A stretch of 64,000 nt of DNA from Clostridiales bacterium (GTDB lineage: Bacteria > Bacillota > Clostridia > Christensenellales > CAG-138), in contig WREI01000002.1 of the NCBI GenBank assembly GCA_009779405.1, positions 3,611 to 67,610 on the forward strand, read 5' to 3'. The notes below the pieces were generated by a model. That model was not told the origin of the DNA and ran no database searches. It worked only from the letters and a program-made list of their open reading frames with translations. Positions 13,015-60,496 of this stretch are shown here, one piece after another (the stretch's first letter is position 1; each line of letters starts with the position of its first letter). The translations under genes and the position numbers were made by a program.

Positions 13015-13016
13015 TT

Positions 13017-14141
13017 ATGTTGACGTATCAGCAGCTTTCCGATCTGCCGGAGGCAATCGTTGCGTTGATCGGTGAAACAGAGCGGGCCATCATCGCGGAT
13101 ATGGCGCGCCGCATCGCAAGCATGGGCGGCGTTACCGATACGACGCAATGGCAGGCCCTGCGGCTGGAGTTGCTGGGAACGGTGGAGAGTCGCATATTGG
13201 AAACACTCTCAGCGGCTTTGAACCGATCTCAGCAAGAATTAATCAATCTATTTGATGAAGCCGCAATGCGTTCTCTGGCCCTGGATGAGAAGATATATAA
13301 GGCCGCCGGTTATTCGCCCGTCCCGCTGAGCGAGAATGCGTATTTACAACAATTGATCCGCGCGGGGCTGGAGAAAACGAAAGGAGCATACCGCAATCTG
13401 ACCAATACGACCGCCATAACGGCAACACGGCAGTTTCAAGACGCGCTTGATCTTGCATACTCTAAGATTGCAAGCGGCGCGTTCTCATACCAAGAGGCGA
13501 TCAAGGCGGGTATTAAAACGCTGACGCAAAATGGGCTTGCTTCCATAGGTTACGGCAGCGGGCATACTGATTGGCTGGATGTCGCGTTTCGGCGAGCTAC
13601 GCTGACAGGCGTCAATCAGACCTGCGCGGAAATTCAATTGGCAAACGCGGAGCAGCTCGGTGCTGATCTGGTGGAGACCACAGCGCATCACGGAGCGCGC
13701 CCTGATCACGCCGAATGGCAGGGGCAGGTATTCAGCATCTCGGGTACACACCCGAAATACCCAAGCTTTTACGAGTATACAGGCTACGGATACGGTTGGG
13801 GCCTTTGCGGGTGGAATTGTCGGCATTCGTTCTTCCCGTTCTTTGAGGGTCTCTCAGAGCGCGCATATGACGCAGAGACGCTGCGGGGCTACAATGACAA
13901 GACGGTTGAGTTTGACGGCAAAGAAATGAGCCTGTATGACGCTACGCAGCAGCAACGCTACATCGAGCGCGGCATACGGCGATGGAAGCGGGAAGCGTCC
14001 GCTATGGAAGCGGCAGGGGTTGATTCATCATACGCGCAGGCCAAGGTGCGAGAGTGGCAAGCGCGGCAGCGCGATTTTGTTTCACAAACGGGGTTAACAC
14101 GGGATTATTTTAGGGAGCGGGCTGGGAAACAGAACGCTTAA
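13017..14141 (+). CDS. Head morphogenesis / minor capsid protein (Phage Mu F-like, SPP1 gp7 family)
   Basis: HHGARPDHAEWQGQVF and CGWNCRHSFFPF motifs; follows the portal gene. Confidence 0.85.
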   Translation: MLTYQQLSDLPEAIVALIGETERAIIADMARRIASMGGVTDTTQWQALRLELLGTVESRILETLSAALNRSQQELINLFDEAAMRSLALDEKIYKAAGYSPVPLSENAYLQQLIRAGLEKTKGAYRNLTNTTAITATRQFQDALDLAYSKIASGAFSYQEAIKAGIKTLTQNGLASIGYGSGHTDWLDVAFRRATLTGVNQTCAEIQLANAEQLGADLVETTAHHGARPDHAEWQGQVFSISGTHPKYPSFYEYTGYGYGWGLCGWNCRHSFFPFFEGLSERAYDAETLRGYNDKTVEFDGKEMSLYDATQQQRYIERGIRRWKREASAMEAAGVDSSYAQAKVREWQARQRDFVSQTGLTRDYFRERAGKQNA

Positions 14142-14154
14142 TTAAGTTCAACCA

Positions 14155-14177
14155 AGCACCCGACGGGTGCTTTTTTG
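14155..14177 (+). terminator. Intrinsic terminator after the Mu-F-like gene
   Basis: AGCACCC-GAC-GGGTGCT followed by TTTTTT. Confidence 0.75.
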
Positions 14178-14271
14178 ATACATAAAATTCGCCCAGCGCA
14201 CGGCGTAAAACGGCGCGGCCGGCACGGGGAGCCGCCCCCGACATCAAGGCGTAGCCGAATAGGAGACAGAT

Positions 14272-14802
14272 ATGAAACGTGACTTTTTGGAAGGCTTGAA
14301 GCTGGACAAGGACACCATTGACACCATTATGGCCGAACACGGGAAAACCGTGGAAGGGCATAAGACCTCGCAGACAGCTCTGCAAAAGCAACTTTCCGAT
14401 GTGCAGGACGCGCTGAAAAAATTTGACGGCGTTGAGCCTGAAAAGATGACCGGCGAAATCGCCAAATTGCAAGCGGATTTGCAGACGAAGGAAGCCGACT
14501 TTGCGCAACAGCTTGCCGCGCGCGACTTTGATTCGCTCTTGAATGAGCGTATCGCGGGGGCGCGGGGGCGGAATGCGAAGGCAATCAAGTCACTGCTTGA
14601 CGCCGAGAAGTTACGCGGAAGCCAAAACCTAAAAGAGGACATTGCGGCGGCCCTTAAGGCTCTGCAAGAAAGCGATGCGTATCTGTTTGAAGAAACCAAG
14701 CCCGGTGTGCAAGTCAGTACAGGCGGGCAGCACTCGCAGGAAAAGCCCGGGGAGATTGATCCCTTCGACGCTGCCTGCGCAATGTACGAAAAAAAGAAAT
14801 AA
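14272..14802 (+). CDS. Scaffolding protein (phage GP20 family)
   Basis: MKRDFLEGLKLDKDTIDTIMAEHGKTVE.. start; charged coiled-coil composition; sits upstream of the capsid gene. Confidence 0.85.
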   Translation: MKRDFLEGLKLDKDTIDTIMAEHGKTVEGHKTSQTALQKQLSDVQDALKKFDGVEPEKMTGEIAKLQADLQTKEADFAQQLAARDFDSLLNERIAGARGRNAKAIKSLLDAEKLRGSQNLKEDIAAALKALQESDAYLFEETKPGVQVSTGGQHSQEKPGEIDPFDAACAMYEKKK

Positions 14803-14808
14803 GGAGAA

Positions 14809-15714
14809 ATGCACATGGCAACAGAAAATCAGAATCTGCCTGTTCGGCAGTATACGAAGCAGTATATGCGTATTCTCAAAGCTGTTTTTGCGGTAAAGAA
14901 TGCGTTTCAAAGACTGCTTTCCCCCTTGCAAACGCTTGACGGCGTCGAACAAAACAAGACGGCGTTTTCCGTTAAAACGTGCAATACACCCGTCGTCGTC
15001 GGTGATTACAACACGGGCGCAAATGTCGGCTTCGGCACTGGCACCGGCAGCAGCTCGCGCTTCGGCAACAGAACAGAAATAATCTACGGGGATGTTGATG
15101 TTCCCTATGACTACACCCTTGCCATCCATGAGGGCATTGACCGCTACACGGTCAACAATAGGCTCGATGCCGCCGTGGCGGATCGTCTCCGGCTCCACAG
15201 CGAGGCGCAGACACGCAAAATGAACAATCGCATCGGCGCGTTCATTTCCGCGAACGCAGGCAAAGTTCTGGCGCTTGTCGGCATGGCCGAGGATGCGCTT
15301 ACGGCATTGTTTGATTCTGCGGCTGCGCACTTCACCAATTCTGAAGTGGACGCTTCGCTGGTGGCATATGTCACGCCGGAGTTGTACAACGCCCTTGTGA
15401 ACCACGGTCTCGCCGTCCGCGAAAAGGGCAGCGGCGTCGACATCGACAGCAACGGAATCTACAAGTTCAAGAATTTCGCGATTGAATCCACGCCCAACAA
15501 ATACTTTGCTACGGGGGAAGTTGCGTATTTCGGCGCAGACGGCATCATAATCCCGTTCGTGGGCATCGTCACAACGCGCACGATTCCGAGCGAAGACTTT
15601 GACGGCAATGCCTTGCAAGCAGCGGCCAAGGGCGGCACGTTCATGCTGGACGACAACAAGGTGGCGTTGGTCAAAGTCACCTACACCGACCCGCTTGAGC
15701 CGGAAGAACCGTAA
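14809..15714 (+). CDS. Major capsid protein
   Basis: ~300 aa directly after the scaffold gene; strong SD AAGGAG; call based on position. Confidence 0.8.
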   Translation: MHMATENQNLPVRQYTKQYMRILKAVFAVKNAFQRLLSPLQTLDGVEQNKTAFSVKTCNTPVVVGDYNTGANVGFGTGTGSSSRFGNRTEIIYGDVDVPYDYTLAIHEGIDRYTVNNRLDAAVADRLRLHSEAQTRKMNNRIGAFISANAGKVLALVGMAEDALTALFDSAAAHFTNSEVDASLVAYVTPELYNALVNHGLAVREKGSGVDIDSNGIYKFKNFAIESTPNKYFATGEVAYFGADGIIIPFVGIVTTRTIPSEDFDGNALQAAAKGGTFMLDDNKVALVKVTYTDPLEPEEP

Positions 15715-29994: not shown

Positions 29995-30071
29995 TGGTCT
30001 GGGTGACAGGAATTGAACCTGCGACCTCTTGAACCCCATTCAAGCACGCTACCAAACTGCGCTACACCCAG
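29995..30071 (-). tRNA. tRNA-Pro (anticodon GGG), CCA encoded
   Basis: The reverse complement folds as acceptor CTGGGTG/CACCCAG, D arm GCGC-AGTTTGGTA-GCGT, anticodon arm CTTGA-ATGGGGT-TCAAG and T arm GCAGG-TTCAATT-CCTGT, ending A73-CCA. C1:G72 and G37 fit tRNA-Pro. Confidence 0.9.
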
Positions 30072-45824: not shown

Positions 45825-46775
45825 ATGGAGTCGAATAAGAAATTGCGGCTACACGCGGTCGCAAGGCGGGAACAGCGCGCGGCGTATCTGTTCCTGATCC
45901 CCGCCCTGCTCGGCCTGTCGCTCATCACCTACCTGCCCTTATTGGCCGCGTTCGGCATAGGCTTTACAGACTTGCGCGTCGCGCATTTCATGCCGAACAA
46001 CCCGCCGCCGCTGCAGTTTGTCGGGTTCAAAAATTTTATCGATATATTTACAAACCCGAGCATCAACATACTCAACTCGATTAAAGTGACCATCTATTTC
46101 GCGCTGCTTGCCGTGGTGGGAAGCATCGTGTACTCGATGTTTATCGCAGTACTCCTGAACCGTAAAGTGCCGGGACGCGCGTTCTTCCGCGCCATCTTCT
46201 ATGTGCCGCATATCCTGCCCGCCGCCTCGGTGATGATCAGCTGGTACTTCCTCTTGCTGGATAACGGCGTCATCAACTACATCATCTCTCAGTTCGGCTT
46301 TGAAAGGGTAAAGTTTCTGGACAATATCTATACGGTTATGCCGACCCTGGCTCTCATCTCCGTTTGGACCTGCGGGAACCTGATTGTCATCTTTTTGGCG
46401 GGACTGCAAAACGTGCCGCGGGTCTACCATGAGGCAGCCGAGATAGACGGCGCGAACAGCTGGCAGCGCTTTTGGCGCATCACCATACCCTGCATGACCC
46501 CCATCATCTTCTATAATCTGCTGATGAGCCTTGTCATCAATTTGCAGGTGGTCGTCCCCGCGCTGGCCATCACAAAGGGCGGGCCGGGCGGGCCGGGACA
46601 GGGCGCCACAAGGTTTATGTCCTATTCCATGTACCAGATCGCCTTTATCAACGGAGAATTCGGGCGGGCCGGGGCTGTCGCGTTTGTCTTCTTTGTCGTC
46701 GCCGCAGTTTTCGCATTCATACTGTTCGCCACGAGTAAGCGATGGATATTTTATCAGGGGGACGAGAAGAAGTGA
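45825..46775 (+). CDS. Sugar ABC transporter permease (MalF-like)
   Basis: Multi-TM; EAA-loop region EAAEIDGANSWQRFWRITIP. Confidence 0.9.
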   Translation: MESNKKLRLHAVARREQRAAYLFLIPALLGLSLITYLPLLAAFGIGFTDLRVAHFMPNNPPPLQFVGFKNFIDIFTNPSINILNSIKVTIYFALLAVVGSIVYSMFIAVLLNRKVPGRAFFRAIFYVPHILPAASVMISWYFLLLDNGVINYIISQFGFERVKFLDNIYTVMPTLALISVWTCGNLIVIFLAGLQNVPRVYHEAAEIDGANSWQRFWRITIPCMTPIIFYNLLMSLVINLQVVVPALAITKGGPGGPGQGATRFMSYSMYQIAFINGEFGRAGAVAFVFFVVAAVFAFILFATSKRWIFYQGDEKK

Positions 46776-47659
46776 TGCAGGAAAATACAAGGAAGGGCGC
46801 ACCACGCGTACAATATATCAAGAACAAGCGGCGCGGCGCGGCAGCGGCGAACGTCATTGCGTTTATTGTCATACTGTTCCTGGCTGCGGGCGCCGTCTTC
46901 CCGCTGTGGTGGATGTTGCGCTCCGCACTGATGGCGAATACGGATATCTTCTTAGCGCCGCCGCCCTTTTTCCCGAAAGACTGGCTCTGGACGAATTTCA
47001 TTTTAGAGCCGCGCACCTTTGATTTTTGGTTGTACTTGGGGAATACCCTGACCATCGTCGTCCCCTGCGTGGTTTTCGGAACGATTACGGCGGTGTTTTG
47101 CGGCTATGCCTTCGCGCGGCTGCGCTTTCGCGGCAAGCAATTTCTGTTCGCGCTCTGCGTGGGCTCCATGCTGCTGCCGACCATGGTGACGCTGATCCCG
47201 CTCTATATCGTATGGTCGCGGTTGGGGTTGGTGGACACCTATTGGCCACTGATACTCCCCTATCTCTGCGGGGGCGGCGCGTTCAATATCTTCCTCGTAC
47301 GCCAGTTTATGCTGACCATACCGAAGGAGTTGGACGAAGTGGCCAGTATCGACGGCGCGGGTTATTTCCGCACATTGGTGAGTATACTCGTACCCAATAT
47401 CCTGCCCGCCATTATCGTTGTGGCTCTGCTGATCTTCATTACGACCTGGAACGATCTGCTGCAACAGACGATCTATATCAATTCACCGCACAAACTCACG
47501 ATGGCGACCGGCCTGACCCAGTTTATGGGCTCATACAAGAACGACTATTCGGGGATGTTCGCCGCCACCTGCTTATCGTTTTTGCCGGGAGTGATCGTGT
47601 ACCTCATAGGACAGCGGTACTTTGTCGAGGGTATTGTTATGACGGGGATGAAGAACTGA
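46775..47659 (+). CDS. Sugar ABC transporter permease (MalG-like)
   Basis: ATG at 46775 overlaps the upstream stop; EAA loop LDEVASIDGAGYFRTLVSILVP. Confidence 0.9.
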   Translation: MQENTRKGAPRVQYIKNKRRGAAAANVIAFIVILFLAAGAVFPLWWMLRSALMANTDIFLAPPPFFPKDWLWTNFILEPRTFDFWLYLGNTLTIVVPCVVFGTITAVFCGYAFARLRFRGKQFLFALCVGSMLLPTMVTLIPLYIVWSRLGLVDTYWPLILPYLCGGGAFNIFLVRQFMLTIPKELDEVASIDGAGYFRTLVSILVPNILPAIIVVALLIFITTWNDLLQQTIYINSPHKLTMATGLTQFMGSYKNDYSGMFAATCLSFLPGVIVYLIGQRYFVEGIVMTGMKN

Positions 47660-47864
47660 TGTTCATGTCGACAAGCTATCGCTTGCCGACAGGGTTTCAC
47701 CGGGTTTTCTTGTGTTTACCGATTCCCGCCTATGGCGGGAACCGATAAACACGGCCAGAAAATCCTCCAAGGAGTGCGCTGGCGGGCGCCCAGGTCGCCC
47801 TTGCGCACGAATTGAAAACTATTGTCCGCTCACGCGGGGATTTTACCAATAGGAGTAATTGTTG

Positions 47865-48590
47865 ATGCGCTTTTCGGAATTTTTAAGAGAGAAACGCTTT
47901 GGGCCGGGGCGGGGCGTGACGGGGCCGCCGCCGGAAAAGGGGATTAAACGCTTCTTCTTTATACTCTGGAATCATTTTTGGAAGCTGATACTGCTGAACC
48001 TGCTGTTTCTGGCGTTCTGCATTCCGATTCTGACGATCCCCGCGGCGTTCTGCGGCATGAACCGGGTCTTGATTAAGCTGGTGCACGAGGGGCATTGCGA
48101 TCTGTGGCAGGATTTCATCCGCGAGTTTAAGAGCAGCTTCTTCAAAAGCCTGCCCTTTGGGGTTCTTTATGCCTTTTTGCTGCTGGATATTCAGTATGCT
48201 GTCAGACTGAGCGCTGCCGGGGAGAGCTTGAACGTTTGGATCGCCGCGCTGGCCTTCTGCCTGCTGGGGGCCACCATCGTCTTCTTCAGCTATGCCTTTG
48301 TCTTTATCCCCGCGCTGCCGCTCAAGGGTTGGCCCGTGGCCAAGAACGCGTTTATCTTTATGCTGACCGAGTGGAAGACGAATATAATACTGCTGGTCTG
48401 CGCGGCCGTTTTGACGGGGGGATTGGCGGCCATCGCGTACTATGTCCCCGTGCCGGCCATGGCCCTGCTGCTTGTGATTTACTTTGCGTTCTGCCAGCTG
48501 CTCGTTTGCACGGCGATTATGGAACCCATGCGCAGGCGCATCATAGAGCCGTATGAGAAAACGCAGAATGAAACAGAGGTGTCTGTATGA
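47865..48590 (+). CDS. YesL/DUF624-family membrane protein
   Basis: ATG at 47865 after AGGAG; FFFILWNHFWKLILLNLLFLAFCIPILTIPAAFCGM pattern; usual partner of sugar ABC loci. Confidence 0.75.
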   Translation: MRFSEFLREKRFGPGRGVTGPPPEKGIKRFFFILWNHFWKLILLNLLFLAFCIPILTIPAAFCGMNRVLIKLVHEGHCDLWQDFIREFKSSFFKSLPFGVLYAFLLLDIQYAVRLSAAGESLNVWIAALAFCLLGATIVFFSYAFVFIPALPLKGWPVAKNAFIFMLTEWKTNIILLVCAAVLTGGLAAIAYYVPVPAMALLLVIYFAFCQLLVCTAIMEPMRRRIIEPYEKTQNETEVSV

Positions 48591-49471
48591 ACCGTTATGA
48601 TATCACCTTTATCGGCCATATGTGCTACGATGAGGTTCTTCCCTTCGGGGGGGAGCCGATCATTGCGCCGGGCTCCGCCGTGCTCTGTGGCGCGATGGTC
48701 ACCGCGCGCGTGGGGAAGAAGACGGCCGCCATCGTCCGCATGTCTTTGGATGAGGCGCGCATCAACCAACCCATGCGGGATTTGGGCGTGGATGTGCACG
48801 TGATACCCGCCCCCTGCACGACCTATTCGCGCGTGATTCACGAGTCGGAGAATGTGGACGAGCGGAAGATTACGCTGATTCGGACGGCCGGGCTGATTCG
48901 GATAGAGGATATCCCCGATTTTCAGTCGCACATGGTGCACCTCTGCGGCATTTCGGATTCCGAGTTCGATATAGCGCTGATCGACGGGCTGCGCGCGCGC
49001 GGCTACAGCCTGTCCACGGATATGCAGAGTTTTGTGCGCCAGATTACACCCATTACCCATGAAATCAACTTCGGGGATGTAGCCGATAAGGTTGAGATCA
49101 TATCCAAAATGGACAGGGTGAAGCTCGACGTCGTCGAAGCGAGGGTGCTGACAGGCACGGACGATCTGGAGAAGGCCGCATTGATTGTGGAAAGCTGGGG
49201 TTGCCCCGAAGTGGTGATCACGCATTCCCGGGGCGTGCTGGCCAGGGTGGACGGGCAGACCTATTACGAGAAATTTTCGAACAGGAGCGTGGTTGGGCGC
49301 ACGGGCAGGGGCGATACGACCTTCGCCGCCTACCTCGCCTGGCGCTTGGAACACAGTGTGGCCGAGTCCCTGCGATTCGCGGCGGCCCTCGTCTCCATCA
49401 AAATGGAGACCTATGGACCATTTCAGGGGAGCTTGGAGGATGTGCGCGAAAGAATACGGGAGAGCCATTAG
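48587..49471 (+). CDS. PfkB-family carbohydrate kinase
   Basis: C-terminal GRTGRGDTTFAAYLA (GxGD) motif; ~294 aa. Confidence 0.85.
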   Translation: MNRYDITFIGHMCYDEVLPFGGEPIIAPGSAVLCGAMVTARVGKKTAAIVRMSLDEARINQPMRDLGVDVHVIPAPCTTYSRVIHESENVDERKITLIRTAGLIRIEDIPDFQSHMVHLCGISDSEFDIALIDGLRARGYSLSTDMQSFVRQITPITHEINFGDVADKVEIISKMDRVKLDVVEARVLTGTDDLEKAALIVESWGCPEVVITHSRGVLARVDGQTYYEKFSNRSVVGRTGRGDTTFAAYLAWRLEHSVAESLRFAAALVSIKMETYGPFQGSLEDVRERIRESH

Positions 49472-49482
49472 GGAGTACCCAT

Positions 49483-51819
49483 ATGTATATTGACAATTTT
49501 CATATCGATCCCAACTGGTGCGTGGTTGAGGATGCCTTTGATATAGGCCGCGTGCGGCATATCGAGTCCGTAATGGCCTTGGGGACGGGCTATATGACGA
49601 CGCGCGCGAGCTTTGACGAGGGTTTTGCCGACGATGCGCAGAATGCCGAGTATGACCGCATCCCGGGCAACGTCTCGCTCGAGGTCGTCCCCTGCAAAAA
49701 GAGCCGCTGGGGCAGTTATATCCAGCTCGTGCAGGGCAGGCATCCGTTTTGGCGGACGGGGATCGTCAATCTCCCCTATTATCTCGGGCTGGAAGTATGG
49801 GCGGACGGTGAGCGTTTGGATATGGAGAGTTCGCAGATTTCGGGTTACAGGATGTGGCTGAACCTGCGCAAAGCGACTCTCTATCGAACCTTTGTCTGGA
49901 CGACAAGTTCGGGCAAGGTCTTGAATCTGCTCTTCAAGCGTTATATGGATCCCAAACTGAGATTTGTCTGCGTGCAGAAGCTCTGCGTGCGGGCGCTTTC
50001 GGGCGACGCGTCGCTTCTTGTGCAGAGTTATATTGACAACGACGTCCGCACGAACGGTTTTGATAAATACAGCGCCCGCGCCACCGGCGTCGCCGACGGC
50101 GGGGTCATCTGTTCCGATATAACGACCAATTTGGGCGACCGCGTGGTGACGGCAAGCAAGTTGGTCTGCGATGTACCCGCCGAATATTCGATCCTCCCCT
50201 TGGAGCGGCGCATTGTGTCAGGGGCCGCGTTCTCGCTTGCCGCGGGCAATGAAGCCGATATTTTCAAGGTTTCCGCGACGACCTGCAGCCTGTATTCGGA
50301 AAAGAATCCTCTGGACGAGGGCTTAAAACTGATACGCGACTGCATGCAAGCGGGCGAAGAGGAACTGCATCGCCGCCACACAGAGCAGTGGGCGAAATAT
50401 TGGGCGGACTGTGACATTGCCGTTGCGGCGCGGGACGACGCGGGCTACAACAGTCAGCGCGCGATACGACAGGCCATCTATCATCTACTGCGCGCCCGCT
50501 CGAGCGACCCGCGCGCGCTCAACTGCGCCAAGGGTACGACCAGTGAGATGTATTTGGGTTCCGTCTGCTGGGATATGGAGCTGTTCTTCCAGCCCTTCTA
50601 TATATATACGCGGCCCGAGCTCGCCAAAATGACGCATCTCTACCGCTACGGCATGTTGGACGGGGCGCGGCGGAGCGCGCAAAGCATGCACTATCTCGGC
50701 GCGCGCTACCCCTGGCAGACCGACCGCAACGGCGACGAGGTATGCCCGATGTTCGAGTATGCGGACCATGAGATCCATATCACAGCCGACGTCGTTATCG
50801 GGCTCTGGCATTATTATTGCAATACGCTCGATAAAGAGTATCTGTATAACTGCGGCTTGGAGATTATCATCGAGACCGCGCGCTACTGGACGAGCCGCGT
50901 CAACCGCATTCCGGGGCGGCCCGGCTACCAGCTGCTCGGCGTGATGGGGCCGGATGAATATAAGCCCTTCTCCAACAACAACGCGTATACGAATTTTGTG
51001 GTGCGGGAGAATTTGCGTTTGGCCGCAACCGTGGTGCGCATGTGTAAGGCGGACGCGCCCGAGCTGTATAAGCAGCTTTGTAAAAAGATTGCATTTCGCG
51101 AAAGCGAGTTGGCACTGTTTAATGAAATTGCGGACGGAATGTCCATCCCGCAAGACAGCGAACGCAATATCATCTGGCAGTGCGACGATTTTGAGACGGC
51201 CTACGCCGAGATCGATATCAAGGGGCTGTGGGCGGACAGGGACAAGCTGTTCGGGTTTTATACGACGCAGGAGCTCAGATACCGCAGTAAATGCCTGAAG
51301 CAGTCCGACGTGATCGCGCTGATGGGCGTATACACCGAGGCCTTCACGAAGGAGCAGATGGCCGCGTCCTTCGACTATTACAACCCCTATACGATACACG
51401 ATTCCTCCAATTCCCTCTGTCACAATGCGATCGTCGCCGCGCTGATCGGGCGGCCCGAGACAGCGTACGCGAACTGGAAGAAGTCGATGGACATCGATTT
51501 CGGGGCGCGCCCGCGCGCGGCGGAGGGCATCCACTTTGCCAATGTGGGCGGCATGTGGCAGGAGCTTATCATGGGCTTTGCCGGGTTGGTCAGCGCGCTC
51601 AATAGCGACACCTTGACTTTCAAGCCCTGTATGCCGGAACAGATTGCGTCGATTGCTTTCCAAATGATATGGAAAGGGCAACGGGTGAAAGTCACCGTTG
51701 CCCGGCATGAGCTTGTATTGCAGAATCTGTCTGATAGCGAGCTTGTCTTTATGGTGTATGAGCGCGCGGTTAAGGTGATAGCCGGGTCTGAAATTACTGC
51801 GCAGCTTGGGGGGGAATGA
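49483..51819 (+). CDS. Glycoside hydrolase family 65 protein (phosphorylase or hydrolase)
   Basis: ATG at 49483. GARYPWQTDRNGDEVCP and HITADVVIGLWHYY regions are typical of the GH65 catalytic domain. The track start at 49201 overlaps the kinase gene. Confidence 0.85.
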   Translation: MYIDNFHIDPNWCVVEDAFDIGRVRHIESVMALGTGYMTTRASFDEGFADDAQNAEYDRIPGNVSLEVVPCKKSRWGSYIQLVQGRHPFWRTGIVNLPYYLGLEVWADGERLDMESSQISGYRMWLNLRKATLYRTFVWTTSSGKVLNLLFKRYMDPKLRFVCVQKLCVRALSGDASLLVQSYIDNDVRTNGFDKYSARATGVADGGVICSDITTNLGDRVVTASKLVCDVPAEYSILPLERRIVSGAAFSLAAGNEADIFKVSATTCSLYSEKNPLDEGLKLIRDCMQAGEEELHRRHTEQWAKYWADCDIAVAARDDAGYNSQRAIRQAIYHLLRARSSDPRALNCAKGTTSEMYLGSVCWDMELFFQPFYIYTRPELAKMTHLYRYGMLDGARRSAQSMHYLGARYPWQTDRNGDEVCPMFEYADHEIHITADVVIGLWHYYCNTLDKEYLYNCGLEIIIETARYWTSRVNRIPGRPGYQLLGVMGPDEYKPFSNNNAYTNFVVRENLRLAATVVRMCKADAPELYKQLCKKIAFRESELALFNEIADGMSIPQDSERNIIWQCDDFETAYAEIDIKGLWADRDKLFGFYTTQELRYRSKCLKQSDVIALMGVYTEAFTKEQMAASFDYYNPYTIHDSSNSLCHNAIVAALIGRPETAYANWKKSMDIDFGARPRAAEGIHFANVGGMWQELIMGFAGLVSALNSDTLTFKPCMPEQIASIAFQMIWKGQRVKVTVARHELVLQNLSDSELVFMVYERAVKVIAGSEITAQLGGE

Positions 51820-51890: not shown

Positions 51891-53063
51891 TTAGTATTGA
51901 ATATACTCGATTTGCTCTGGGGTAAACCAAACCATTGTGCCATCCATGTATTCAATATTCAAGCTAATGAGCTTAACAGAACTTATATCCCAATTGTAGA
52001 ATTTGCCCCAGTACCATTTGGTTCCGCTTATTCCTTTCCCCTTTTCATACGGGCCTGTATCGGAGCAATAATTGACTGTATCTCGCTTGTATTTACAAGT
52101 CGCAACATCGCCTACGGCATTATAGAATGTGGCACCAAACGTTACATATTTTATGGCTTTTTCAGAGTTGTTGACAAAGTTGAAATAGAGCTTCACGCCG
52201 CCAGCTGAATCGGGACGGGAAACCCATATCCGCGTAACCCGAATAATAGAACGAGCTTCTGCTATTGCTAACTTCATGGCTTCTTCGGCAGCAAGTGCAT
52301 CATATGTGTTCCGGCTGTCTGTCAATATTGAACGATTGGAAACCCTTTTCGCTTCATCAGCGGATAGTGCGCTGTATGCTTTCTCCGCAGAGACGATGGC
52401 ACTCTCGCTTGATAGAGTGACACTGCCAATTGCGCTTATCAAAACCTCAGCGTTGCTCACTTTTAGTTGAGATAAGGTCTCCCTTGCCGACCCCAGCACA
52501 GGATAGTTATTGACCTGTTCTTTCAAACTTGCATCAAGACTGTTGTAAGCGCTTTCCGCTTCATGAATTTGCTTTTCACTGGTTATTGTTACTGCTCCGA
52601 TCCTCTCGATAAGACCTATAACTGTTTCGATTTGCAGCTCGGGATACTCCTCCTCTGCTGTAGTCAGAATGGCATAGTTGCCGACCATTTCTTTTTGCGC
52701 TGTACTCAGCGCATCGTATGCGCTGCGCGCTTTCGTGATAGCTCCGAGACTCTCCAAGGCCACTTGTCCAATTTGACTGATTAATCCGTCTACCTCGTCT
52801 GCTTTTTCTTTATCCGCTTTCCATAAGTCAAAGGATGCTCTGGCTTCTGTCAGAATGGAATAACCCTCCACCTGCTCCTTTTCCTCATCACTTAGAGCGC
52901 CATATGCATTCTCTGCTTCCAAAATGGGCGCTTCATTACCCATAGAAATAGCAGGCAAGACCGCAATCAATTGCTCGACATTTTGCACTACTTGACTTTT
53001 TCCACATGCAGCTAAAATGAGTGCGAATCCAAGCAGCAACACTGATACTAAAACCTTCCTCAT
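51891..53063 (-). CDS. Lipoprotein with four internal ~60-aa repeats and a distinct C-terminal domain
   Basis: Start at the internal Met: MRKVLVSVLLLGFALILAAC (lipobox). Repeated A(E/R)xAYxALSxxxKxxVxNYxxL units. Low GC. Confidence 0.75.
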   Translation of the reverse strand: MRKVLVSVLLLGFALILAACGKSQVVQNVEQLIAVLPAISMGNEAPILEAENAYGALSDEEKEQVEGYSILTEARASFDLWKADKEKADEVDGLISQIGQVALESLGAITKARSAYDALSTAQKEMVGNYAILTTAEEEYPELQIETVIGLIERIGAVTITSEKQIHEAESAYNSLDASLKEQVNNYPVLGSARETLSQLKVSNAEVLISAIGSVTLSSESAIVSAEKAYSALSADEAKRVSNRSILTDSRNTYDALAAEEAMKLAIAEARSIIRVTRIWVSRPDSAGGVKLYFNFVNNSEKAIKYVTFGATFYNAVGDVATCKYKRDTVNYCSDTGPYEKGKGISGTKWYWGKFYNWDISSVKLISLNIEYMDGTMVWFTPEQIEYIQY

Positions 53064-53212
53064 TCGGTTTACCCTCCGATATTTTTTGCGCAATGAGTAT
53101 ACCATGCGTGCTAAGAAAATGCAATGCGATTTGCATAACTTTTGTAATGCTGACTGCTTTGATCTATCGTTATATGATTTTTGCATAACATATGATATGC
53201 GAGGTGCAATAT

Positions 53213-53548: not shown

Positions 53549-55138
53549 TTACTCTTGGTAATACCCGTACCCGCGCCGCGCCATCTCCTCGCGGCGTTTT
53601 ATTTCGGCTTGCTTGCGGCGGCGGCGCTGTTCCGCTTCCTCGCGGCGGCGCTTCATAATTATGGCGCGGCGCACCATGAGCAAGGCAAGCAACAGCAGGA
53701 AGACGCCGACTATGATGATAAGGGCGATCACCAAACGTCGGCCAACGTTAATGGGTTCATCGGCTCCGGGCGTTGGTAAGGGGGAATCGAAGATGTTGAT
53801 GGGTGTTGCGCCCGGCTCGTCCGTTGCCATATTATTGATAACGGCCTCCTGAACCTCGCGCGTTGCGATGAGGTCCGCCGTGAGTATGACCACGCCGCCC
53901 GCGATATAGTCCACCCTGCCGATGATATTGCCCTTGTTGATGGGGGCCTTTTGCCCTTCCTCGTAATGCACGACGTTCGCGCTGGCCGCATAATCCACTT
54001 CCAAGGCCTCGCGCACGCTGCGCATCATCTGCACGTTCTTGCCGCTTGCATAGACGGCATCCACCACAAGCAGGCCCCGGGCCTCATCCTGCTCGGAAGC
54101 GTTCGCTATCTGCACGGTAAATTGGACGGGCAGACCGCGCTCGATCAATTGTTCGACCGTATAGGTCTCCATCAGCACGGAGTACACATGGTCGAAGAGC
54201 AACGCCGCGTCCTGGAAGCGGCGGGCATTGTATTTCTCCTTGGCGGGCGGCTTCATATTGTTTTGATTATTTGTATAATAGGAATCAAACAGGGTGCCGC
54301 CCATGAGCACCGCCACGAGACGCACGCCGCCGCGCTCCGCCGCCGCGACCAAACATTTGCCCGCGGGATTCGTATCGCCCGTCTTGACGCCGATGGCGGA
54401 TTCATAGAGACAGGAGATCGGGTTGGGGTTATCATCCGTGGGCTCAACATCGGCGATCAGGCGATTGCTGTTGACCAGCCGGATGGGACGGTCGTTGCCG
54501 AGCTCCGTGGCAACATGCTCCGCCGCGCTGACGATTTGACAAAAATCCGGGTTTTGCAGGGCATAGGCCGTCAAAATACCCATATCGCGGGCCGTGCTGT
54601 AATGGTCGCTCTTATGCTTGCCGTGGACGGTGAGAAAACGTGAATTCTGCATGCCGATTGCGGCCGCCTTCTCGTTCATCAGCTTGGCAAATTCGTTCTC
54701 CGACCCGGCGATATGCTCCGCAATCGCGACGGCGGCATCGTTGCCCGAGACGAGCATCAGCCCGTACAGCATATCGCGCAGGGAAAAGGTCTCGCCCCGG
54801 AATACGCCCATCAGGGAATTACCCTGGCCCCAATCGGTCGCGGCTTCGCTGATTGTAATGACATCATCCAAACTATGACCGGCGCTGTAGGCATATTCCA
54901 GCGCGACAATGCAGGTCAGAATCTTGGTGGTACTGGCGGGATATATCTTGGCGTCCGCATTGCGCTCCAAGCCCAGGATGGACTGATGCGGGTTGCTCGC
55001 ATCGAAGACATAGACATAGGGCTCCTCGATCATAGCCATATCAAAGCCCTCCGCGCGGGTAGGCGGCGCTATAAACGGGCAGAGCAAGAGTAGGGCAAAC
55101 AGGAGGGAGAGGACTTTGCAGATATATTTGTGTTTCAT
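53549..55138 (-). CDS. D-alanyl-D-alanine carboxypeptidase (peptidase S11) with C-terminal TM and a highly charged tail
   Basis: SxxK PASTTKILT, SxN LVSGNDAA, KTG GVKTGDT. The C-terminus has a TM then RRREEAEQRRRRKQAEIKRREEMARRGYGYYQE. Confidence 0.88.
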   Translation of the reverse strand: MKHKYICKVLSLLFALLLLCPFIAPPTRAEGFDMAMIEEPYVYVFDASNPHQSILGLERNADAKIYPASTTKILTCIVALEYAYSAGHSLDDVITISEAATDWGQGNSLMGVFRGETFSLRDMLYGLMLVSGNDAAVAIAEHIAGSENEFAKLMNEKAAAIGMQNSRFLTVHGKHKSDHYSTARDMGILTAYALQNPDFCQIVSAAEHVATELGNDRPIRLVNSNRLIADVEPTDDNPNPISCLYESAIGVKTGDTNPAGKCLVAAAERGGVRLVAVLMGGTLFDSYYTNNQNNMKPPAKEKYNARRFQDAALLFDHVYSVLMETYTVEQLIERGLPVQFTVQIANASEQDEARGLLVVDAVYASGKNVQMMRSVREALEVDYAASANVVHYEEGQKAPINKGNIIGRVDYIAGGVVILTADLIATREVQEAVINNMATDEPGATPINIFDSPLPTPGADEPINVGRRLVIALIIIVGVFLLLLALLMVRRAIIMKRRREEAEQRRRRKQAEIKRREEMARRGYGYYQE

Positions 55139-55193
55139 GAAATGTATAAAACCCTTTCGTTATGCAACAAATATTCGAGGGTGAACGGTCTTT

Positions 55194-55222
55194 AGTCTAT
55201 CGCTCCCCTCCCCCATTGTCAA
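55194..55222 (-). promoter_or_regulatory. Candidate promoter of the DD-carboxypeptidase gene
   Basis: Minus strand: TTGACA, 17-nt spacer, TAGACT. Confidence 0.45.
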
Positions 55223-55292
55223 CCGGAAAAGTCTGCTTTTTGCACCCGATTTGCGTCGGTCACGGAAAATTTACAAAAACAGTTTCGGGGCT

Positions 55293-56627
55293 TTACGGGG
55301 TTAGCCGTTTCGGGCTGCGGAACAAAAACTCGGTCTCGTTGATATGCGTGCCGAGGAGCAGCATGGTGAGACGGTCTACGCCCAGGCCGAAGCCGCCGTG
55401 GGGCGGGCAGCCGTATTTGAAGAATTCCAAATAGAATTTGACGTCTTCGGCCAGACCGCGCTCCGCCGCCTGCGCTTTCAGGATGTCGTGGCGGTGTTCG
55501 CGCTGGGCGCCCGTTGTGATCTCGACGCCGCGCCAGATGAGGTCATAGCCCTGCGGGACGCCGTGCTCGTCCCGCATATGGTAGAATGCGCGCTTTTCTG
55601 CGCCAAAATCGGTGATGAAGAGGAACTCATGGCTGTATTTCTGCTGCACCCACTGATAGCTCAGGCGCTCGGCTTCGGTCGTCATATCGCCGCACTCGCC
55701 CTCCTCGGGGGTATAGTTGAACTCCTTTTTCAGCTCGGCATATAACTCTTGCAGGGTGATGACCGGGAAAGGCAGCGTGGGGATGATAACGGGCAAGCCG
55801 AAGCGCTTTTCTATCTCCTCGCCATACTGCGCTTGCAGCTTTTGGAGTGCATGGGTCAATAGCTCGGCCTGTAATTGCATCACGTCGCGATAGCTTTGGA
55901 TATAGCTCAATTCCAGATCGAAGCCCGTGAACTCGGTGGCGTGCTTGCTGGTGAAGGATTTTTCGGCGCGGAAGACGGGGCCGACCTCAAAGACGCGCTC
56001 GAATCCGCCCGCCATCGCCATCTGCTTATAGAACTGCGGGCTTTGGGCGAGATAGGCCTTGCGCTCGAAATAGTCCACCGAGAAGACGTCTGCGCCGCTC
56101 TCGCTCGCCGCGCCGATCAGCTTGGGGGAATGGATTTCCAGGAAATTATTTTGCAACAGAAATTCGCGCATGGCGGCGACGACACAGCTCTGCACCTTGA
56201 ACATCAACTGGTTGCGATCCGTGCGCAGGTCGACCCAGCGATAGTCGATGCGGAGGTCTATGCCGCTCTTCTCCACGGCGGCCTTCCTCTTTGTGGCGGG
56301 GATATCCTCGCGCGCGATGGGCAGGGCGGCGGCCAAGGACTCCACCGCAATGGCGGAGGGGATCATTTCGATGCCGTGCAGTTTGACAAACTCGTTGGCA
56401 ACGGCTTTGCCTGTGACGGAAATGACGGAGTCGGGGGTCAGGCCCTCGAGCGCGGGCAGGAGTTGGGGCAGTTTTTCCTTTTCGATGGTGATCTGCACCT
56501 TGCCCGTGATATCTTTCAGCACGATAAAGGCCATGGATTTCCCGTCGCGGAAATTCTCCACAAAGCCCTGCAAGAGCAACTCGCTGCCCAAGTGCCGCGG
56601 TATGTCGCGGATATAGGTTCTGTTCAT
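55293..56627 (-). CDS. aspS: Aspartyl-tRNA synthetase, archaeal/eukaryal-like type 2 (short form)
   Basis: ~444 aa with no GAD insertion; FRAEKSFTSKHATEFTGFDLE; GCPPHGGFGLGVDRLTMLLLG; C-terminal ..SPKRLTP. ATG at 56627 preferred over the TTG at 56633. Confidence 0.85.
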   Translation of the reverse strand: MNRTYIRDIPRHLGSELLLQGFVENFRDGKSMAFIVLKDITGKVQITIEKEKLPQLLPALEGLTPDSVISVTGKAVANEFVKLHGIEMIPSAIAVESLAAALPIAREDIPATKRKAAVEKSGIDLRIDYRWVDLRTDRNQLMFKVQSCVVAAMREFLLQNNFLEIHSPKLIGAASESGADVFSVDYFERKAYLAQSPQFYKQMAMAGGFERVFEVGPVFRAEKSFTSKHATEFTGFDLELSYIQSYRDVMQLQAELLTHALQKLQAQYGEEIEKRFGLPVIIPTLPFPVITLQELYAELKKEFNYTPEEGECGDMTTEAERLSYQWVQQKYSHEFLFITDFGAEKRAFYHMRDEHGVPQGYDLIWRGVEITTGAQREHRHDILKAQAAERGLAEDVKFYLEFFKYGCPPHGGFGLGVDRLTMLLLGTHINETEFLFRSPKRLTP

Positions 56628-56636
56628 GTGCAATCC

Positions 56637-58424
56637 CTATTCCTTGACCACGGCGATATGCAGTTCTTTGAGCTGCTTTGCATCCACCTTGTCGGGCGCG
56701 TTGGTCAGGGGGCATGACGCGTTCTGCACTTTGGGGAAGGCAATCACGTCGCGTATGCTGCCCGCGCCGCAGATAAGCATGGCGATGCGGTCCAGCCCAT
56801 AGGCCAGCCCGCCGTGGGGCGGGGTGCCATAGCGGAAGGCATCCAAGAGGAAGCCGAAGCGAAGCTGCGCCTCCTCCTGCGTAAAGCCCAGCAGGCGGAA
56901 CATGGTCTCCTGCAGGGGGCGGGAGTGGATACGGATGGAACCGCCGCCCAGCTCGACGCCGTTCAGGATGATATCATAGGCCTTGGCGCGCACCCGGCCC
57001 GGGTCGCTCTCCAAGAAGGGCAAGTCCTCGTCCATGGGGCTGGTGAAGGGGTGGTGCTTGGCCACAAAGCGGTTCGCTTCGTCATTCCATTCCAAGAGCG
57101 GGAACTCCGTCACCCAGAGCAGGTTGTAGCTATTCTCGGGGATCAACTTTAACTTTTCCGCCAATTTCAGGCGCAGAGCCCCCAAGGCTGCCCAGACAAC
57201 CTCGTTGCAGTCGGCGACGATAAAGAGGAGGTCTCCAGTCTCGGCGTTGGCTATGCGTTTGATTTCCTCGATCTCCATCTCGGATAGAAATTTGGCGATG
57301 GGGGATTGCAGACCCTCCGCCTTGAAATTCATCCAGGCCAAGCCCTTGGCGTGATAGGTCTTGGCCACCTCGCCCAATGCGTCAATCTCCTTGCGGGAGA
57401 AGGCGGCGGAATAGCCCTTGGCGTTGATGCAGCGCACGCTGCCGCCCGCGGCCAGCGCGCCCGCGAATACAGAGAAGGCGCTGTCCTTAACTGCTTCCGA
57501 AATATCGCAGAGCGTAAGGCCGAAGCGCGTGTCGGGCTTGTCGGAACCGTAGCTGTCCATCGCGTCCTGCCAGGTGATACGCGGCAGGGGGCGTTTTACC
57601 TCATAATTCAACGTTTCGGCGAAGAGCTCTTTCAAGAAACCCTCGTTGACGGCGATCACATCGTCGACATCGACAAAGGACAGCTCCAAGTCGATCTGGG
57701 TGAAATCCGGCTGGCGGTCGGCGCGCAGGTCCTCGTCGCGGAAGCAGCGCGCCAGTTGGATATAACGGTCATAGCCCGAGACCATCAGCAACTGTTTGAA
57801 CAATTGCGGGCTCTGGGGCAGGGCGAAGAACTCGCCCGGGTGTACGCGGCTGGGTACCAAGTAGTCCCGCGCGCCCTCCGGCGTGCTCTTGGTGAGCATG
57901 GGGGTCTCTATCTCCAAAAAGCCCTGCTCGGCAAAGTAGCGGCGCGTGCAGAAGGCGATCTTATGGCGCATCAGCAGGTTGCGCTGCATAGCGGGGCGGC
58001 GCAGATCCAGATAGCGGTATTTCAGACGCAGGAGCTCGCCCGCGTTGCAGTTGTCGTCGACCTCGATGGGCGGCGTCTCGCTTCGGCTCAAAATCTTGAA
58101 CGAAGAGACCCGCACCTCGACCTCGCCCGTCGCCATGTTCGGGTTGACCATACCCGGCGTACGCAAAATGAGCGTGCCGCGCACGGCAAGTACGAATTCG
58201 GCGCGTATCCCGCCCGCCAAAGCGAAGTCCGTCTCGGGCATATCGGCGGAATCGAAAACGATCTGCATCAGCCCCGTGCGATCCCGCAGCTGTACAAAGA
58301 TGAGCGCGCCCAAGTCGCGGTGCGCATTGGTCCAGCCCATAAGCGTAACCTCGCGGCCTGCGTCCGCCGCGGTCAGTTCGGCGCAGTAAGAACTGCGTTT
58401 CCAGCCCCCCAATAGATCTTGCAT
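56637..58424 (-). CDS. aspS: Aspartyl-tRNA synthetase, bacterial type (long form with insertion domain)
   Basis: 595 aa; QSPQLFKQLLMVSGYDRYIQLARCFRDEDLRADRQPDFTQIDLE; GTPPHGGLAYGLDRIAMLICG; SD GGAGG upstream. Confidence 0.93.
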   Translation of the reverse strand: MQDLLGGWKRSSYCAELTAADAGREVTLMGWTNAHRDLGALIFVQLRDRTGLMQIVFDSADMPETDFALAGGIRAEFVLAVRGTLILRTPGMVNPNMATGEVEVRVSSFKILSRSETPPIEVDDNCNAGELLRLKYRYLDLRRPAMQRNLLMRHKIAFCTRRYFAEQGFLEIETPMLTKSTPEGARDYLVPSRVHPGEFFALPQSPQLFKQLLMVSGYDRYIQLARCFRDEDLRADRQPDFTQIDLELSFVDVDDVIAVNEGFLKELFAETLNYEVKRPLPRITWQDAMDSYGSDKPDTRFGLTLCDISEAVKDSAFSVFAGALAAGGSVRCINAKGYSAAFSRKEIDALGEVAKTYHAKGLAWMNFKAEGLQSPIAKFLSEMEIEEIKRIANAETGDLLFIVADCNEVVWAALGALRLKLAEKLKLIPENSYNLLWVTEFPLLEWNDEANRFVAKHHPFTSPMDEDLPFLESDPGRVRAKAYDIILNGVELGGGSIRIHSRPLQETMFRLLGFTQEEAQLRFGFLLDAFRYGTPPHGGLAYGLDRIAMLICGAGSIRDVIAFPKVQNASCPLTNAPDKVDAKQLKELHIAVVKE

Positions 58425-58442
58425 GTGTAACCTCCGGTTTAT

Positions 58443-59105
58443 TTATACAACAAACAGTTGTTTTACGCCGCCCGCCAGCCTGTGTATCATATCCTGCATT
58501 TCGCGGGTGACGGGTGTGTCGGTTTCGATGGTCATATAGGCGTCCTCGCCGCGCCCATGGCGGAAGACCTTCATAAAAGCGATGTTGACATCCATGACCG
58601 CCAATATGTTGCTGACCTCGGCGATGACGCCCGGCTGATCCGTATGGCGGATGATGAGGGTGGGGTATTCGCCCGTCAGCTCCACGCTCAGACCGTTGAT
58701 TTCGGTGATCAATATAGCCGCGCCACCCACGCTCTGCCCCACCACCTCGGTTTCCGTGCCGCTTGCGGATGTGACGCGTATGCGCGCGGTGTTCGGGTGG
58801 GGCATGGGCTCATCGGAATACTCGAACTGCACATACATATCCGCCTGCGCGGCCAACGCCGCCGCGTCCTTGATGCGCGGATCGTCGGCCAATAAGCCCA
58901 GCAACCCTGCGATCAACGCTTTATCCGTCCCGTGGCCCGGCCCCGTCTCGGCAAAGGAGCCATACAGCGTGATATACGCATCCGTCACGGAACCGCCCGC
59001 GATATGCCGCGCCGTATGCGCAAGCCGCACAGCCCCCGCTGTATGGGAGCTGGATGGCCCCGTCATGCGCGGGCCTATGATGTCGAAAACGGAGAAGGTT
59101 TCCAC
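58443..59105 (-). CDS. sdaAB: L-serine dehydratase, iron-sulfur type, beta subunit
   Basis: FSVFDIIGPRMTGPSSSHTAGAVRLA and YGSFAETGPGHGTDKALIAGLL are colinear with B. subtilis SdaAB, including the ACT-like C-terminus. GTG start. Confidence 0.9.
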   Translation of the reverse strand: METFSVFDIIGPRMTGPSSSHTAGAVRLAHTARHIAGGSVTDAYITLYGSFAETGPGHGTDKALIAGLLGLLADDPRIKDAAALAAQADMYVQFEYSDEPMPHPNTARIRVTSASGTETEVVGQSVGGAAILITEINGLSVELTGEYPTLIIRHTDQPGVIAEVSNILAVMDVNIAFMKVFRHGRGEDAYMTIETDTPVTREMQDMIHRLAGGVKQLFVV

Positions 59106-59321
59106 GTATTTATATCAATCCCAACAAACTTTCCTTTTGTTTCCCTGCATTGCAGTAGGCAGACTTGATTTATGGGGATTCCTAACCACCCAACCAAACT
59201 GCGTTTGGTCGGGACCCGGCTCCCCATAAATCATAAAAGAAACGGGAGTGCCGCCCAACGGGAGACGCAGTTCGTTTCTACATTGTGAACTGCTTTTGCG
59301 CCCCGCGCAAAAGTAAATCGA

Positions 59322-59591
59322 AGTGCCGTACACCCGTCCTTCGACGGCGGCGTACAAGCGGTATGCGCAGCGGTGGCTCCGGACAAACGTTCCCGCGGCA
59401 CACATGAAAATCCGCTTAGTGCTGCTTCCGTCAGGACCTGACACGGTTCACGGCATCATGTTGCACGGGGCTCGCCCATCAACGCTCCGTCTGCGCGCCT
59501 GCCTTATACGCAGACGTCTCGGGACGGGGATTACACCTTGCTATGGCGGATTGCAAGTTCAGGGCACCGCCAGCTCCCCGCTTAGTACGGC
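59322..59591 (-). ncRNA. ffs: Signal recognition particle RNA, long (Bacillus/Clostridia-type, ~270 nt)
   Basis: The minus strand contains the domain IV core GUGUCAGGUCCUGACGGAAGCAGCACUAAGC. 5' GCCGUAC pairs with 3' GUACGGC. A strong promoter sits 7 nt upstream. Ends are approximate. Confidence 0.8.
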
Positions 59592-59597
59592 ATTGTT

Positions 59598-59647
59598 ATT
59601 ATATCACGAAATAGAAAACTTGCAAAGCCATGTTTCTGTGATATAAT
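59598..59647. promoter_or_regulatory. Back-to-back divergent promoters sharing one palindromic -35 hexamer
   Basis: TTGCAA (59620-59625) is its own reverse complement. On each strand it is followed by a 16-nt spacer ending in TGA and then TATAAT (plus 59642-59647; minus 59603-59598). Confidence 0.7.
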
Positions 59648-59653
59648 CGGTTT

Positions 59654-60496
59654 ATGAAACGACGTTTTTTGATTTTGTTCGCCATAGGCGCCGCACTCCT
59701 CCTCTTTGCGGGCTGCGGGGTGGCGGAGGTTCCCGAAGCAACGGATACGCCCGAGCCGACGGGCACGCCCTTTGCGGTGGAAATTGCGCAAGTGACGCTC
59801 CCTCCGACCGCTACGCCTGCGCCGACCGATACGCCCGAGCCGACGCCAAGCCCGACGCCCACGCCGAAGCCCTTGGAGGGGAAGATTATTGGCATTGATC
59901 CGGGGCATCAGAGGAAGGGCAACCATGATACCGAGCCGCAAAGTCCCGATTCTCCCATTATGAAGGCCAAATGCAGCAGCGGAACGCGGGCGCTGGGCGG
60001 CGCGCATGAATATGAAGTCAATTTGGAAGTGGCACTGCGCCTGCGGGCGCTTTTGGAGGAATTGGGCGCGACGGTTATTATGACCCGAGAGAGCCACGCT
60101 GTGGATATTTCCAATATAGAACGCGCGCTGATATTCAATGCGGCGGGGACAGATTACGCGCTCAGATTGCACTGCAACGGCGTAGACAATACGAGCAGGG
60201 CAGGCGCCTTTATGCTGGTGCCGCAGACAAACCCGTTTCTGGAGGATTGTCAGCGGGCGGCGCGACTGCTGATTGACGCTTTTTGTGCAAAAACGGGCGC
60301 AAATAATCTCGGCATAGTCGCGCGCGATGACCAAACGGGCTTCAACTGGTGCGAACGCATGATTATCAATATTGAGATGGGGCATATGACCAATCCCGAA
60401 GAAGGCAAGCTGCTCTCAGACCTCGCCTATTGGGATTTGATGGCGGTGGGGCTTTGCGAGGGGATCTTGGCGTATTTTGAAGGAGCGGGATTGTAA
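59654..60496 (+). CDS. N-acetylmuramoyl-L-alanine amidase (Amidase_3) lipoprotein
   Basis: Signal/lipobox MKRRFLILFAIGAALLLFAGC; Pro/Thr linker; IGIDPGHQ .. HEYEVNLEVALRLRALLEELGATVIMTRE. Confidence 0.88.
   Translation: MKRRFLILFAIGAALLLFAGCGVAEVPEATDTPEPTGTPFAVEIAQVTLPPTATPAPTDTPEPTPSPTPTPKPLEGKIIGIDPGHQRKGNHDTEPQSPDSPIMKAKCSSGTRALGGAHEYEVNLEVALRLRALLEELGATVIMTRESHAVDISNIERALIFNAAGTDYALRLHCNGVDNTSRAGAFMLVPQTNPFLEDCQRAARLLIDAFCAKTGANNLGIVARDDQTGFNWCERMIINIEMGHMTNPEEGKLLSDLAYWDLMAVGLCEGILAYFEGAGL

Follow-up and report, generated by a model that had tools for sequence, protein, structure and literature searches.

Two aspartyl-tRNA synthetase genes in tandem behind a lone sdaAB in a Clostridiales bacterium, perhaps the outcome of a recent gene-order shuffle

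Some bacteria hold more than one aspartyl-tRNA synthetase (AspRS). In Thermus and Deinococcus a bacterial-type, discriminating AspRS1 is accompanied by an archaeal-type, non-discriminating (ND) AspRS2 (PMC4206432, PMC2330236), a precedent that a first-pass annotation of the locus described here had stated in the same terms as these papers. One survey recorded an extra AspRS in 20 of 547 genera, among them Deinococcus-Thermus, Actinomycetales and four Clostridiaceae (PMC4206432), and Clostridium acetobutylicum, according to Saad et al. 2012 in the form in which PMC4206432 cites that work, has three AspRS and two sets of GatCAB, together with an ND-AspRS-gatCAB operon under T-box control. Dual AspRS in bacteria, Clostridia included, is already known; what is unusual in the locus studied here is the tandem order of a bacterial-type gene, aspS, and an archaeal-type gene, aspS2, behind sdaAB, which encodes one subunit of a serine dehydratase. 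The locus lies in a 64,000-nucleotide stretch of the metagenome-assembled genome of an uncultured gut Clostridiales bacterium (contig WREI01000002.1), referred to below as the window, and its three genes are the following:

58443-59105, minus strand: sdaAB, 220 amino acids (aa), GTG start; beta subunit of iron-sulfur L-serine dehydratase
56637-58424, minus strand: aspS, 595 aa, ATG start with GGAGG 7 nt 5' of it; bacterial-type aspartyl-tRNA synthetase with a GAD insertion
55293-56627, minus strand: aspS2, 444 aa from ATG, C-terminus SPKRLTP; archaeal/eukaryal-type aspartyl-tRNA synthetase

The gaps between them measure 18 nt (sdaAB/aspS, 58425-58442) and 9 nt (aspS/aspS2, 56628-56636), each of these tight junctions holds a ribosome-binding site, and an alternative TTG start of aspS2 at 56633 would lengthen its product to 446 aa. 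The first-pass annotation had assigned the same identities and gaps to the three genes, in accordance with the coordinates of the open reading frames (ORFs) and with our Pfam and NCBIfam results, and the NCBI annotation of the three proteins (MCL2670559-MCL2670561) agrees as well. Terminator-like matches within the cluster number 7, against 7.0 expected, and are at chance level; together with the close spacing, this makes co-transcription of sdaAB, aspS and aspS2 plausible, and the two synthetases are presumably made together and both required.

SdaAB is a full-length equivalog of TIGR00719 (209.5 bits, cutoff 161.2; NCBIfam), with an N-terminal SDH_beta domain (PF03315) and a C-terminal ACT domain (PF01842). 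AspRS exceeds the cutoffs of NF001750 (834 bits, cutoff 443) and TIGR00459 (771 bits, cutoff 374), scores 622 bits against T. thermophilus AspRS1, and is composed of an OB fold (PF01336, E 6e-12) and a class II core (PF00152, E 4e-117) that includes a GAD insertion (PF02938, residues 320-414, E 6e-26), a domain which serves as the marker separating the bacterial from the archaeal type of AspRS (PMC4206432). AspRS2 has the OB fold and the class II core without the GAD domain (Pfam), matches NF003483 with 425 bits (cutoff 353), stays below the cutoff of TIGR00458 'aspS_nondisc' (340.9 bits, cutoff 368.4), and scores 275 bits against T. kodakarensis AspRS and 263 bits against T. thermophilus AspRS2.

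Set beside the described systems, the locus recalls T. thermophilus and D. radiodurans in that one genome combines a bacterial AspRS that contains GAD with an archaeal-type one that is shorter and ends in RLTP, both kept by selection. The AspRS genes of Thermus and Deinococcus are not known to be linked, whereas aspS and aspS2 of the window are adjacent and probably co-transcribed, and the window AspRS2 differs from the Thermus ND-AspRS2 in having Lys instead of Pro in the L1 loop and Glu instead of His at the second determinant position, so that its ND status is doubtful. As in C. acetobutylicum, extra AspRS genes are found in a member of the Clostridia, but here the operon has no T-box leader, gatCAB is absent from both the operon and the window, and the partner gene is sdaAB. 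Compared with the hisS-aspS operon of Firmicutes, the window aspS, although 78-87% identical to aspS copies linked to hisS, is parted from hisS and placed after sdaAB, while in other Clostridia it is the archaeal-type gene that fills the slot after hisS. Compared with the sdaAB-sdaAA operon, the window encodes a full-length SdaAB equivalog, but the slot after its gene holds aspS, and sdaAA is missing at the locus, in the whole 64-kb window and in the related locus L091 (numbers with L denote the compared loci).

Gene order in related genomes points to a short history for this cluster. Among 80 GTDB reference loci carrying the aspS2 clade, in which sdaAB was scored within 10 kb of aspS2, none had it there (0/80), and the arrangement, which had been called unusual at first pass, is rare indeed. 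A bacterial aspS was found near aspS2 at one of these 80 loci only, L023, a rumen Clostridiales metagenome-assembled genome in which aspS2-hisS-aspS lie on one strand (10001-14860) and form a second, independently arranged dual-AspRS cluster. Three loci are closer to the window. L091 has the order signal recognition particle (SRP) RNA gene, sdaAB, a 54-nt gap, aspS2, terminator and dac (a D-Ala-D-Ala carboxypeptidase gene), with no aspS in between; its SdaAB is 86-88% and its AspRS2 87% identical to those of the window. It is the one further contig with direct sdaAB-aspS2 adjacency, and the neighbourhood of sdaAB is thereby common to two lineages. L094, an independent JGI contig from another sample, carries aspS-(4 nt)-aspS2 at 86% nucleotide identity to the window. 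In L097, whose AspRS2 is 78% identical, an ATP-binding cassette (ABC)-like gene is followed by aspS2 and then by the dac promoter. The gene after aspS2 in L094 (2395-2480) overlaps the aspS2 stop codon (ATGA) and starts MSQGRFTLLKTEGLARRAEFETPHG; going by its motif, we take it to resemble tgt (tRNA-guanine transglycosylase).

The aspS2 identities imply the tree (L097,(L091,(window,L094))), and on this topology a single insertion of aspS is a simpler account than its loss on two occasions. We accordingly lean towards reading the cluster as a recent, lineage-specific shuffle in the order of known genes (SRP RNA, sdaAB, aspS and aspS2) and not as an old functional coupling. In such a history aspS2-dac would be the older pair; the block of SRP RNA and sdaAB, from which sdaAA had already been split off, would have arrived upstream of aspS2; and the bacterial aspS would have moved directly upstream of aspS2 in the ancestor that the window organism shares with L094.

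A shuffle of this kind might also be mimicked by a metagenome assembly chimera, in which the three genes would not be truly contiguous, and it is true that the sdaAB-aspS junction is present in the window contig only, for which there are records of 87,479 bp (NCBI and ENA, with JGI also listed as a source for two of the proteins) and 87,348 bp (JGI) that possibly represent the same data. We rejected this explanation and regard it as barely credible: the aspS-aspS2 junction recurs in L094, both outer flanks (SRP RNA-sdaAB and aspS2-dac) recur in the same order in L091, and a chimera would have to have joined the pieces precisely at two points and left an intact ribosome-binding site at both.

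Purifying selection acts on each of the three genes. The ratio of nonsynonymous to synonymous substitution rates (dN/dS) is 0.066 for sdaAB between the window and L091, and between the window and L094 it is 0.07-0.09 for aspS and 0.10-0.12 for aspS2, at an unsaturated dS of ~0.65. That both synthetases are constrained while adjacent argues against a short-lived redundancy. It bears on the proposal that AspRS2 is in the course of replacing the bacterial AspRS, the tandem being a transient redundant stage with no split of roles. The proposal draws on loci where the place of the bacterial gene is taken by the archaeal type: archaeal-type aspS stands directly after hisS in L002-L004 (6643-9335; stop and start codons overlap in L002), L074 and L076, in what looks like a replacement of bacterial aspS in place. 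It also draws on L023, which retains both genes as aspS2-hisS-aspS, and on L091, where aspS2 has no neighbouring aspS. Yet a dS of ~0.65 with dN/dS of 0.07-0.12 for both genes is a long time for a dispensable duplicate, and the most parsimonious history of L097, L091, the window and L094 has aspS moving in, not being lost, and we hold ongoing displacement to be quite unlikely.

The absence of sdaAA next to sdaAB, noted at first pass, held for the entire window: tblastn, Pfam on the window ORFs and the called-gene annotation gave no match to sdaAA in the 64 kb (the Pfam run excluded ORFs below ~140 aa and those at 45825-51819, the latter being annotated separately). Homologues of SdaAB at 71-72% identity have sdaAA 14-15 nt downstream (L089, L090, L095 and L096), whereas in the window and in L091 this partner is absent beside sdaAB. 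The first-pass annotation had inferred that the orphan SdaAB may link charging of Asp and Asn to the sensing of amino acids, a suggestion that fares poorly, as the adjacency is limited to a tiny clade and the closest other homologues belong to ordinary sdaAB-sdaAA pairs. In its strong form, with the orphan SdaAB as an ACT-domain amino-acid sensor that regulates both AspRS or their expression, apart from serine dehydratase, it would be in keeping with the 18-nt gap, which fits translational coupling, with an intact sdaAB kept by purifying selection in two lineages that have no neighbouring sdaAA, and with a change of motif from SVGGGN to SVGGAA common to both orphan copies. Against it, SdaAB is a full equivalog and 70-72% identical to copies linked to sdaAA; the adjacency is restricted to a very small clade and found at 0/80 other aspS2 loci; in L091 sdaAB adjoins aspS2, not aspS, and does so across 54 nt; no precedent was found; and an sdaAA elsewhere in the genome accounts for the purifying selection equally well. 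We regard a sensor function as very unlikely. A lone sdaAB under constraint is a working gene, for which the simplest explanation is an sdaAA at another place in the genome, and so SdaAB most likely still is the beta subunit of a serine dehydratase, partnered by a product encoded there, its position beside aspS being most likely an accident of rearrangement. The motif lies at residues ~125-130 of SdaAB, where both orphan copies (window and L091) read SVGGAA and the six other aligned homologues SVGGG(N/S), a clade-specific change of a conserved glycine-rich motif.

We then turned to the tRNA specificity of the two synthetases, for which the first-pass annotation had carried over the roles known from Thermus and Deinococcus. 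On that account AspRS would be discriminating and AspRS2 non-discriminating, the latter supplying the Asp-tRNA-Asn on which GatCAB-dependent formation of Asn-tRNA or asparagine draws. We aligned the window AspRS2 and 200 members of its clade with two reference enzymes, the non-discriminating AspRS2 of T. thermophilus and the discriminating AspRS of T. kodakarensis. At the L1-loop position (Pro72 in T. thermophilus, Lys85 in T. kodakarensis) 200 of the 201 sequences have Lys and not the ND-type proline, among them the window AspRS2 with its loop VKLHG; at the second determinant position (His23 and Trp26, respectively) 200 of the 201 have Glu or Asp, the window having Glu. The residues that read the anticodon in T. 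thermophilus AspRS2 (F33, Q44 and E76) are all found in the window enzyme, with F and Q in 201/201 and E in 200/201. For Pro72, a part in the tolerance of U36 is cited in a bioRxiv preprint (10.64898/2026.05.03.722492), which references Charron 2003 and Feng 2005. The clade in question is a very large clostridial one that takes in Faecalibacterium, Lachnospiraceae, Congzhengia and Limiplasma. The proline is reportedly required for recognition of tRNA-Asn, to go by the title under which the study of Feng et al. from 2005 is cited, and His versus Trp at the T. kodakarensis Trp26 position is said to be an ND determinant, after Tumbula-Hansen et al. in 2002.

The case for roles as in Thermus has its merits: the pattern is established experimentally in Thermus and Deinococcus, both genes are kept by selection and hence are not redundant, AspRS has Leu at the position of P. 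aeruginosa His31, as do the discriminating E. coli AspRS and Thermus AspRS1, and the best NCBIfam model for AspRS2 bears the name 'aspartate--tRNA(Asn) ligase', as does the NCBI label of MCL2670559.1. That family name, though, derives from a hidden Markov model and not from an assay, and since the proline linked with recognition of tRNA-Asn is missing throughout the clade, its application to the clostridial clade is probably an over-annotation. AspRS2 further falls below the TIGR00458 'aspS_nondisc' cutoff, its Lys without an L1-loop proline is that of the discriminating T. kodakarensis enzyme and of 200/201 clade members, neither gatCAB nor a T-box lies nearby, and clade members stand in hisS-aspS2 operons or adjoin asnA-asnS. 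The latter is the case in Congzhengia (L017, 10001-13785), in which an aspS2-asnA-asnS operon encodes an archaeal-type AspRS, an aspartate-ammonia ligase and an asparaginyl-tRNA synthetase (AsnRS), the whole direct asparagine route. Because of the Lys-type loop, the asnA-asnS neighbourhood of L017 and the use of AsnRS, not GatCAB, by AsnA-containing genomes (PMC2330236), a discriminating AspRS2 is the better guess, and the transfer of roles from Thermus and Deinococcus appears unlikely to us.

Two observations on the clade itself were made along the way. At residues ~105-120 AspRS2 carries a lysine-rich insertion of ~13 residues, IPATKRKAAVEKS, at the hinge that joins its anticodon-binding and catalytic domains; most members of the clostridial clade have an insertion of this type, which the archaeal and Thermus enzymes and L074 lack. 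In L093 (10001-11632, P0002) a 543-aa archaeal-type AspRS homologue scores 900 bits against the query at a best local identity of 69%; it has a Faecalibacterium-like N-terminus and an unrelated gene context, and may hold an internal duplication or be a chimera.

The bacterial AspRS is less easily placed. Its orthologues at 78-87% identity lie in the hisS-aspS(-trx) operons of close relatives (L086, L087, L088 and L092), from which its anticodon domain shows no difference. Two published markers, His31 and Gly83 in the P. aeruginosa enzyme, are not known to be reliable in Firmicutes, and as the two positions conflict in the window enzyme (Leu and Gly), we dropped them as a guide to AspRS specificity. 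The inspection of anticodon-domain determinants proposed at first pass has thus given an answer in part, AspRS2 being of the Lys type, which is discriminating-like, with a Glu at the second position that fits neither class, and AspRS being mixed.

The likeliest way for the two enzymes to share the work can nonetheless be sketched. AspRS2 would be the ordinary, tRNA-Asp-specific housekeeping AspRS, as in those Clostridia that have the clade in the hisS-aspS slot or beside asnA-asnS, and the retained bacterial AspRS would supply a non-redundant activity, for which charging of tRNA-Asn for GatCAB is the likeliest candidate. The split would reverse the Thermus/Deinococcus pattern. In full, a horizontally acquired AspRS2 would be the discriminating housekeeper and the native AspRS a dedicated charger of tRNA-Asn, with adjacency fixing their ratio on one transcript, a mirror image of Thermus and Deinococcus and also a stage, caught in the act, of the replacement of bacterial by archaeal-type AspRS across gut Clostridia; we offer this reversal as a doubtful proposition. 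The search for asnS, asnA/asnB, gatCAB and sdaAA suggested at first pass was run within the 64-kb window, and tblastn, Pfam and the called-gene annotation returned none of gatCAB, asnS, asnA and asnB there. Our genome-context search as a whole covered the window and ~2.6 kb beyond it (locus L001), a range that contains none of these genes.

Several points weigh against the reading of the locus as a recent shuffle that left a discriminating AspRS2 beside the native enzyme. For gatCAB, asnS, asnA, asnB and sdaAA, for a second, hisS-linked aspS and for a tRNA-Asn with U1-A72, the evidence covers the window plus ~2.6 kb. The direction in which aspS moved is deduced from four short contigs, and no contig but that of the window shows the junction of sdaAB with aspS, the gene upstream of aspS in L094 lying off the L094 contig. 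The Glu at the second position of AspRS2 is neither the ND residue (His) nor the discriminating one (Trp), and the Lys/Pro rule was set up on archaeal enzymes and Thermus AspRS2, not on the clostridial clade. AspRS, finally, reads discriminating-like at the His31 position (Leu) and ND-like at the Gly83 position (Gly), and from its sequence the tRNA specificity cannot be read.

If the two enzymes differ in tRNA specificity, this small clade would offer a natural test of how tRNA-Asp and tRNA-Asn are split between a native and an acquired synthetase, and of the way in which archaeal-type AspRS took over from the bacterial type in many Clostridia of the gut; failing that, the locus is a commonplace outcome of gene-order change.

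The cluster is flanked by the following elements:

59598-59626, minus strand: sigma-70-like promoter, TTGCAA/TTTGCA, 16-17 nt spacer, TG-TATAAT; 10/12 matches, extended -10
59326-59590, minus strand: large (Bacillus-type) SRP RNA gene, full length; RF01854, 202.9 bits (gathering score 60)
59106-59325, minus strand: structured spacer of 220 nt between SRP RNA and sdaAB; minimum free energy -78.8 kcal/mol, z = -4.2 versus shuffled sequences
55139-55292, minus strand: spacer after aspS2, with no intrinsic terminator
53549-55138, minus strand: dac, S11 D-Ala-D-Ala carboxypeptidase; probably the older neighbour of aspS2, outside the Asp system

The promoter-like site lies 8 nt 5' of the 5' end of the SRP RNA gene and, as judged from its sequence, may be the main promoter for the genes downstream too. 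The 220-nt spacer holds a perfect 8-bp hairpin right after the SRP RNA and has a terminator-like hairpin at 59256-59240; it also forms a long imperfect palindrome, TTTATGGGGA...TCCCCATAAA. It had no Rfam match at E <= 10, and its interpretation as a repeated element was rejected, there being no other copies. In L091 this spacer is absent, and the distance from SRP RNA to sdaAB is 53 nt by the blastn boundary or ~63 nt by the Rfam end of the SRP RNA. No T-box was found at E <= 10 in 55000-59700, and neither a T-box nor another known leader was found near any aspS, be it in the window (upstream of sdaAB, aspS and aspS2) or in seven related loci.

On the other side of the cluster, a promoter-like TTGACA-17-TAGACT (55222-55194) precedes the DD-carboxypeptidase gene and is conserved after aspS2 in L091 and L097. 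In L091 aspS2 is followed by a clear intrinsic terminator (GGGAGGGAAGACCTCCCTTTTTT, within 2464-2725), in a segment that is missing from the window, and transcripts of the window cluster may therefore read through into the DD-carboxypeptidase gene.

Beyond dac, the minus strand encodes a predicted lipoprotein of 431 aa (51891-53186), which has no Pfam match and holds several internal repeats of ~35 residues with the pattern 'A..AY..LS..EK..V.NY..L'. Most of the first 30 kb of the window (about 1-29700) is taken up by a siphovirus-like prophage, with genes for an Enc34-type single-stranded DNA-binding protein, a family A DNA polymerase, a VapE-like primase/helicase and an SNF2 helicase, as well as for a small terminase, a portal, a minor capsid protein, a 1120-aa tape measure protein, a Gp37-like tail protein and an endolysin; the remainder of the window consists of sugar-utilisation genes. 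A tRNA-Pro(GGG) gene at 29995-30071, the sole tRNA gene in the readable sequence (window and ~2.6 kb), adjoins the end of the prophage and is its likely integration site.

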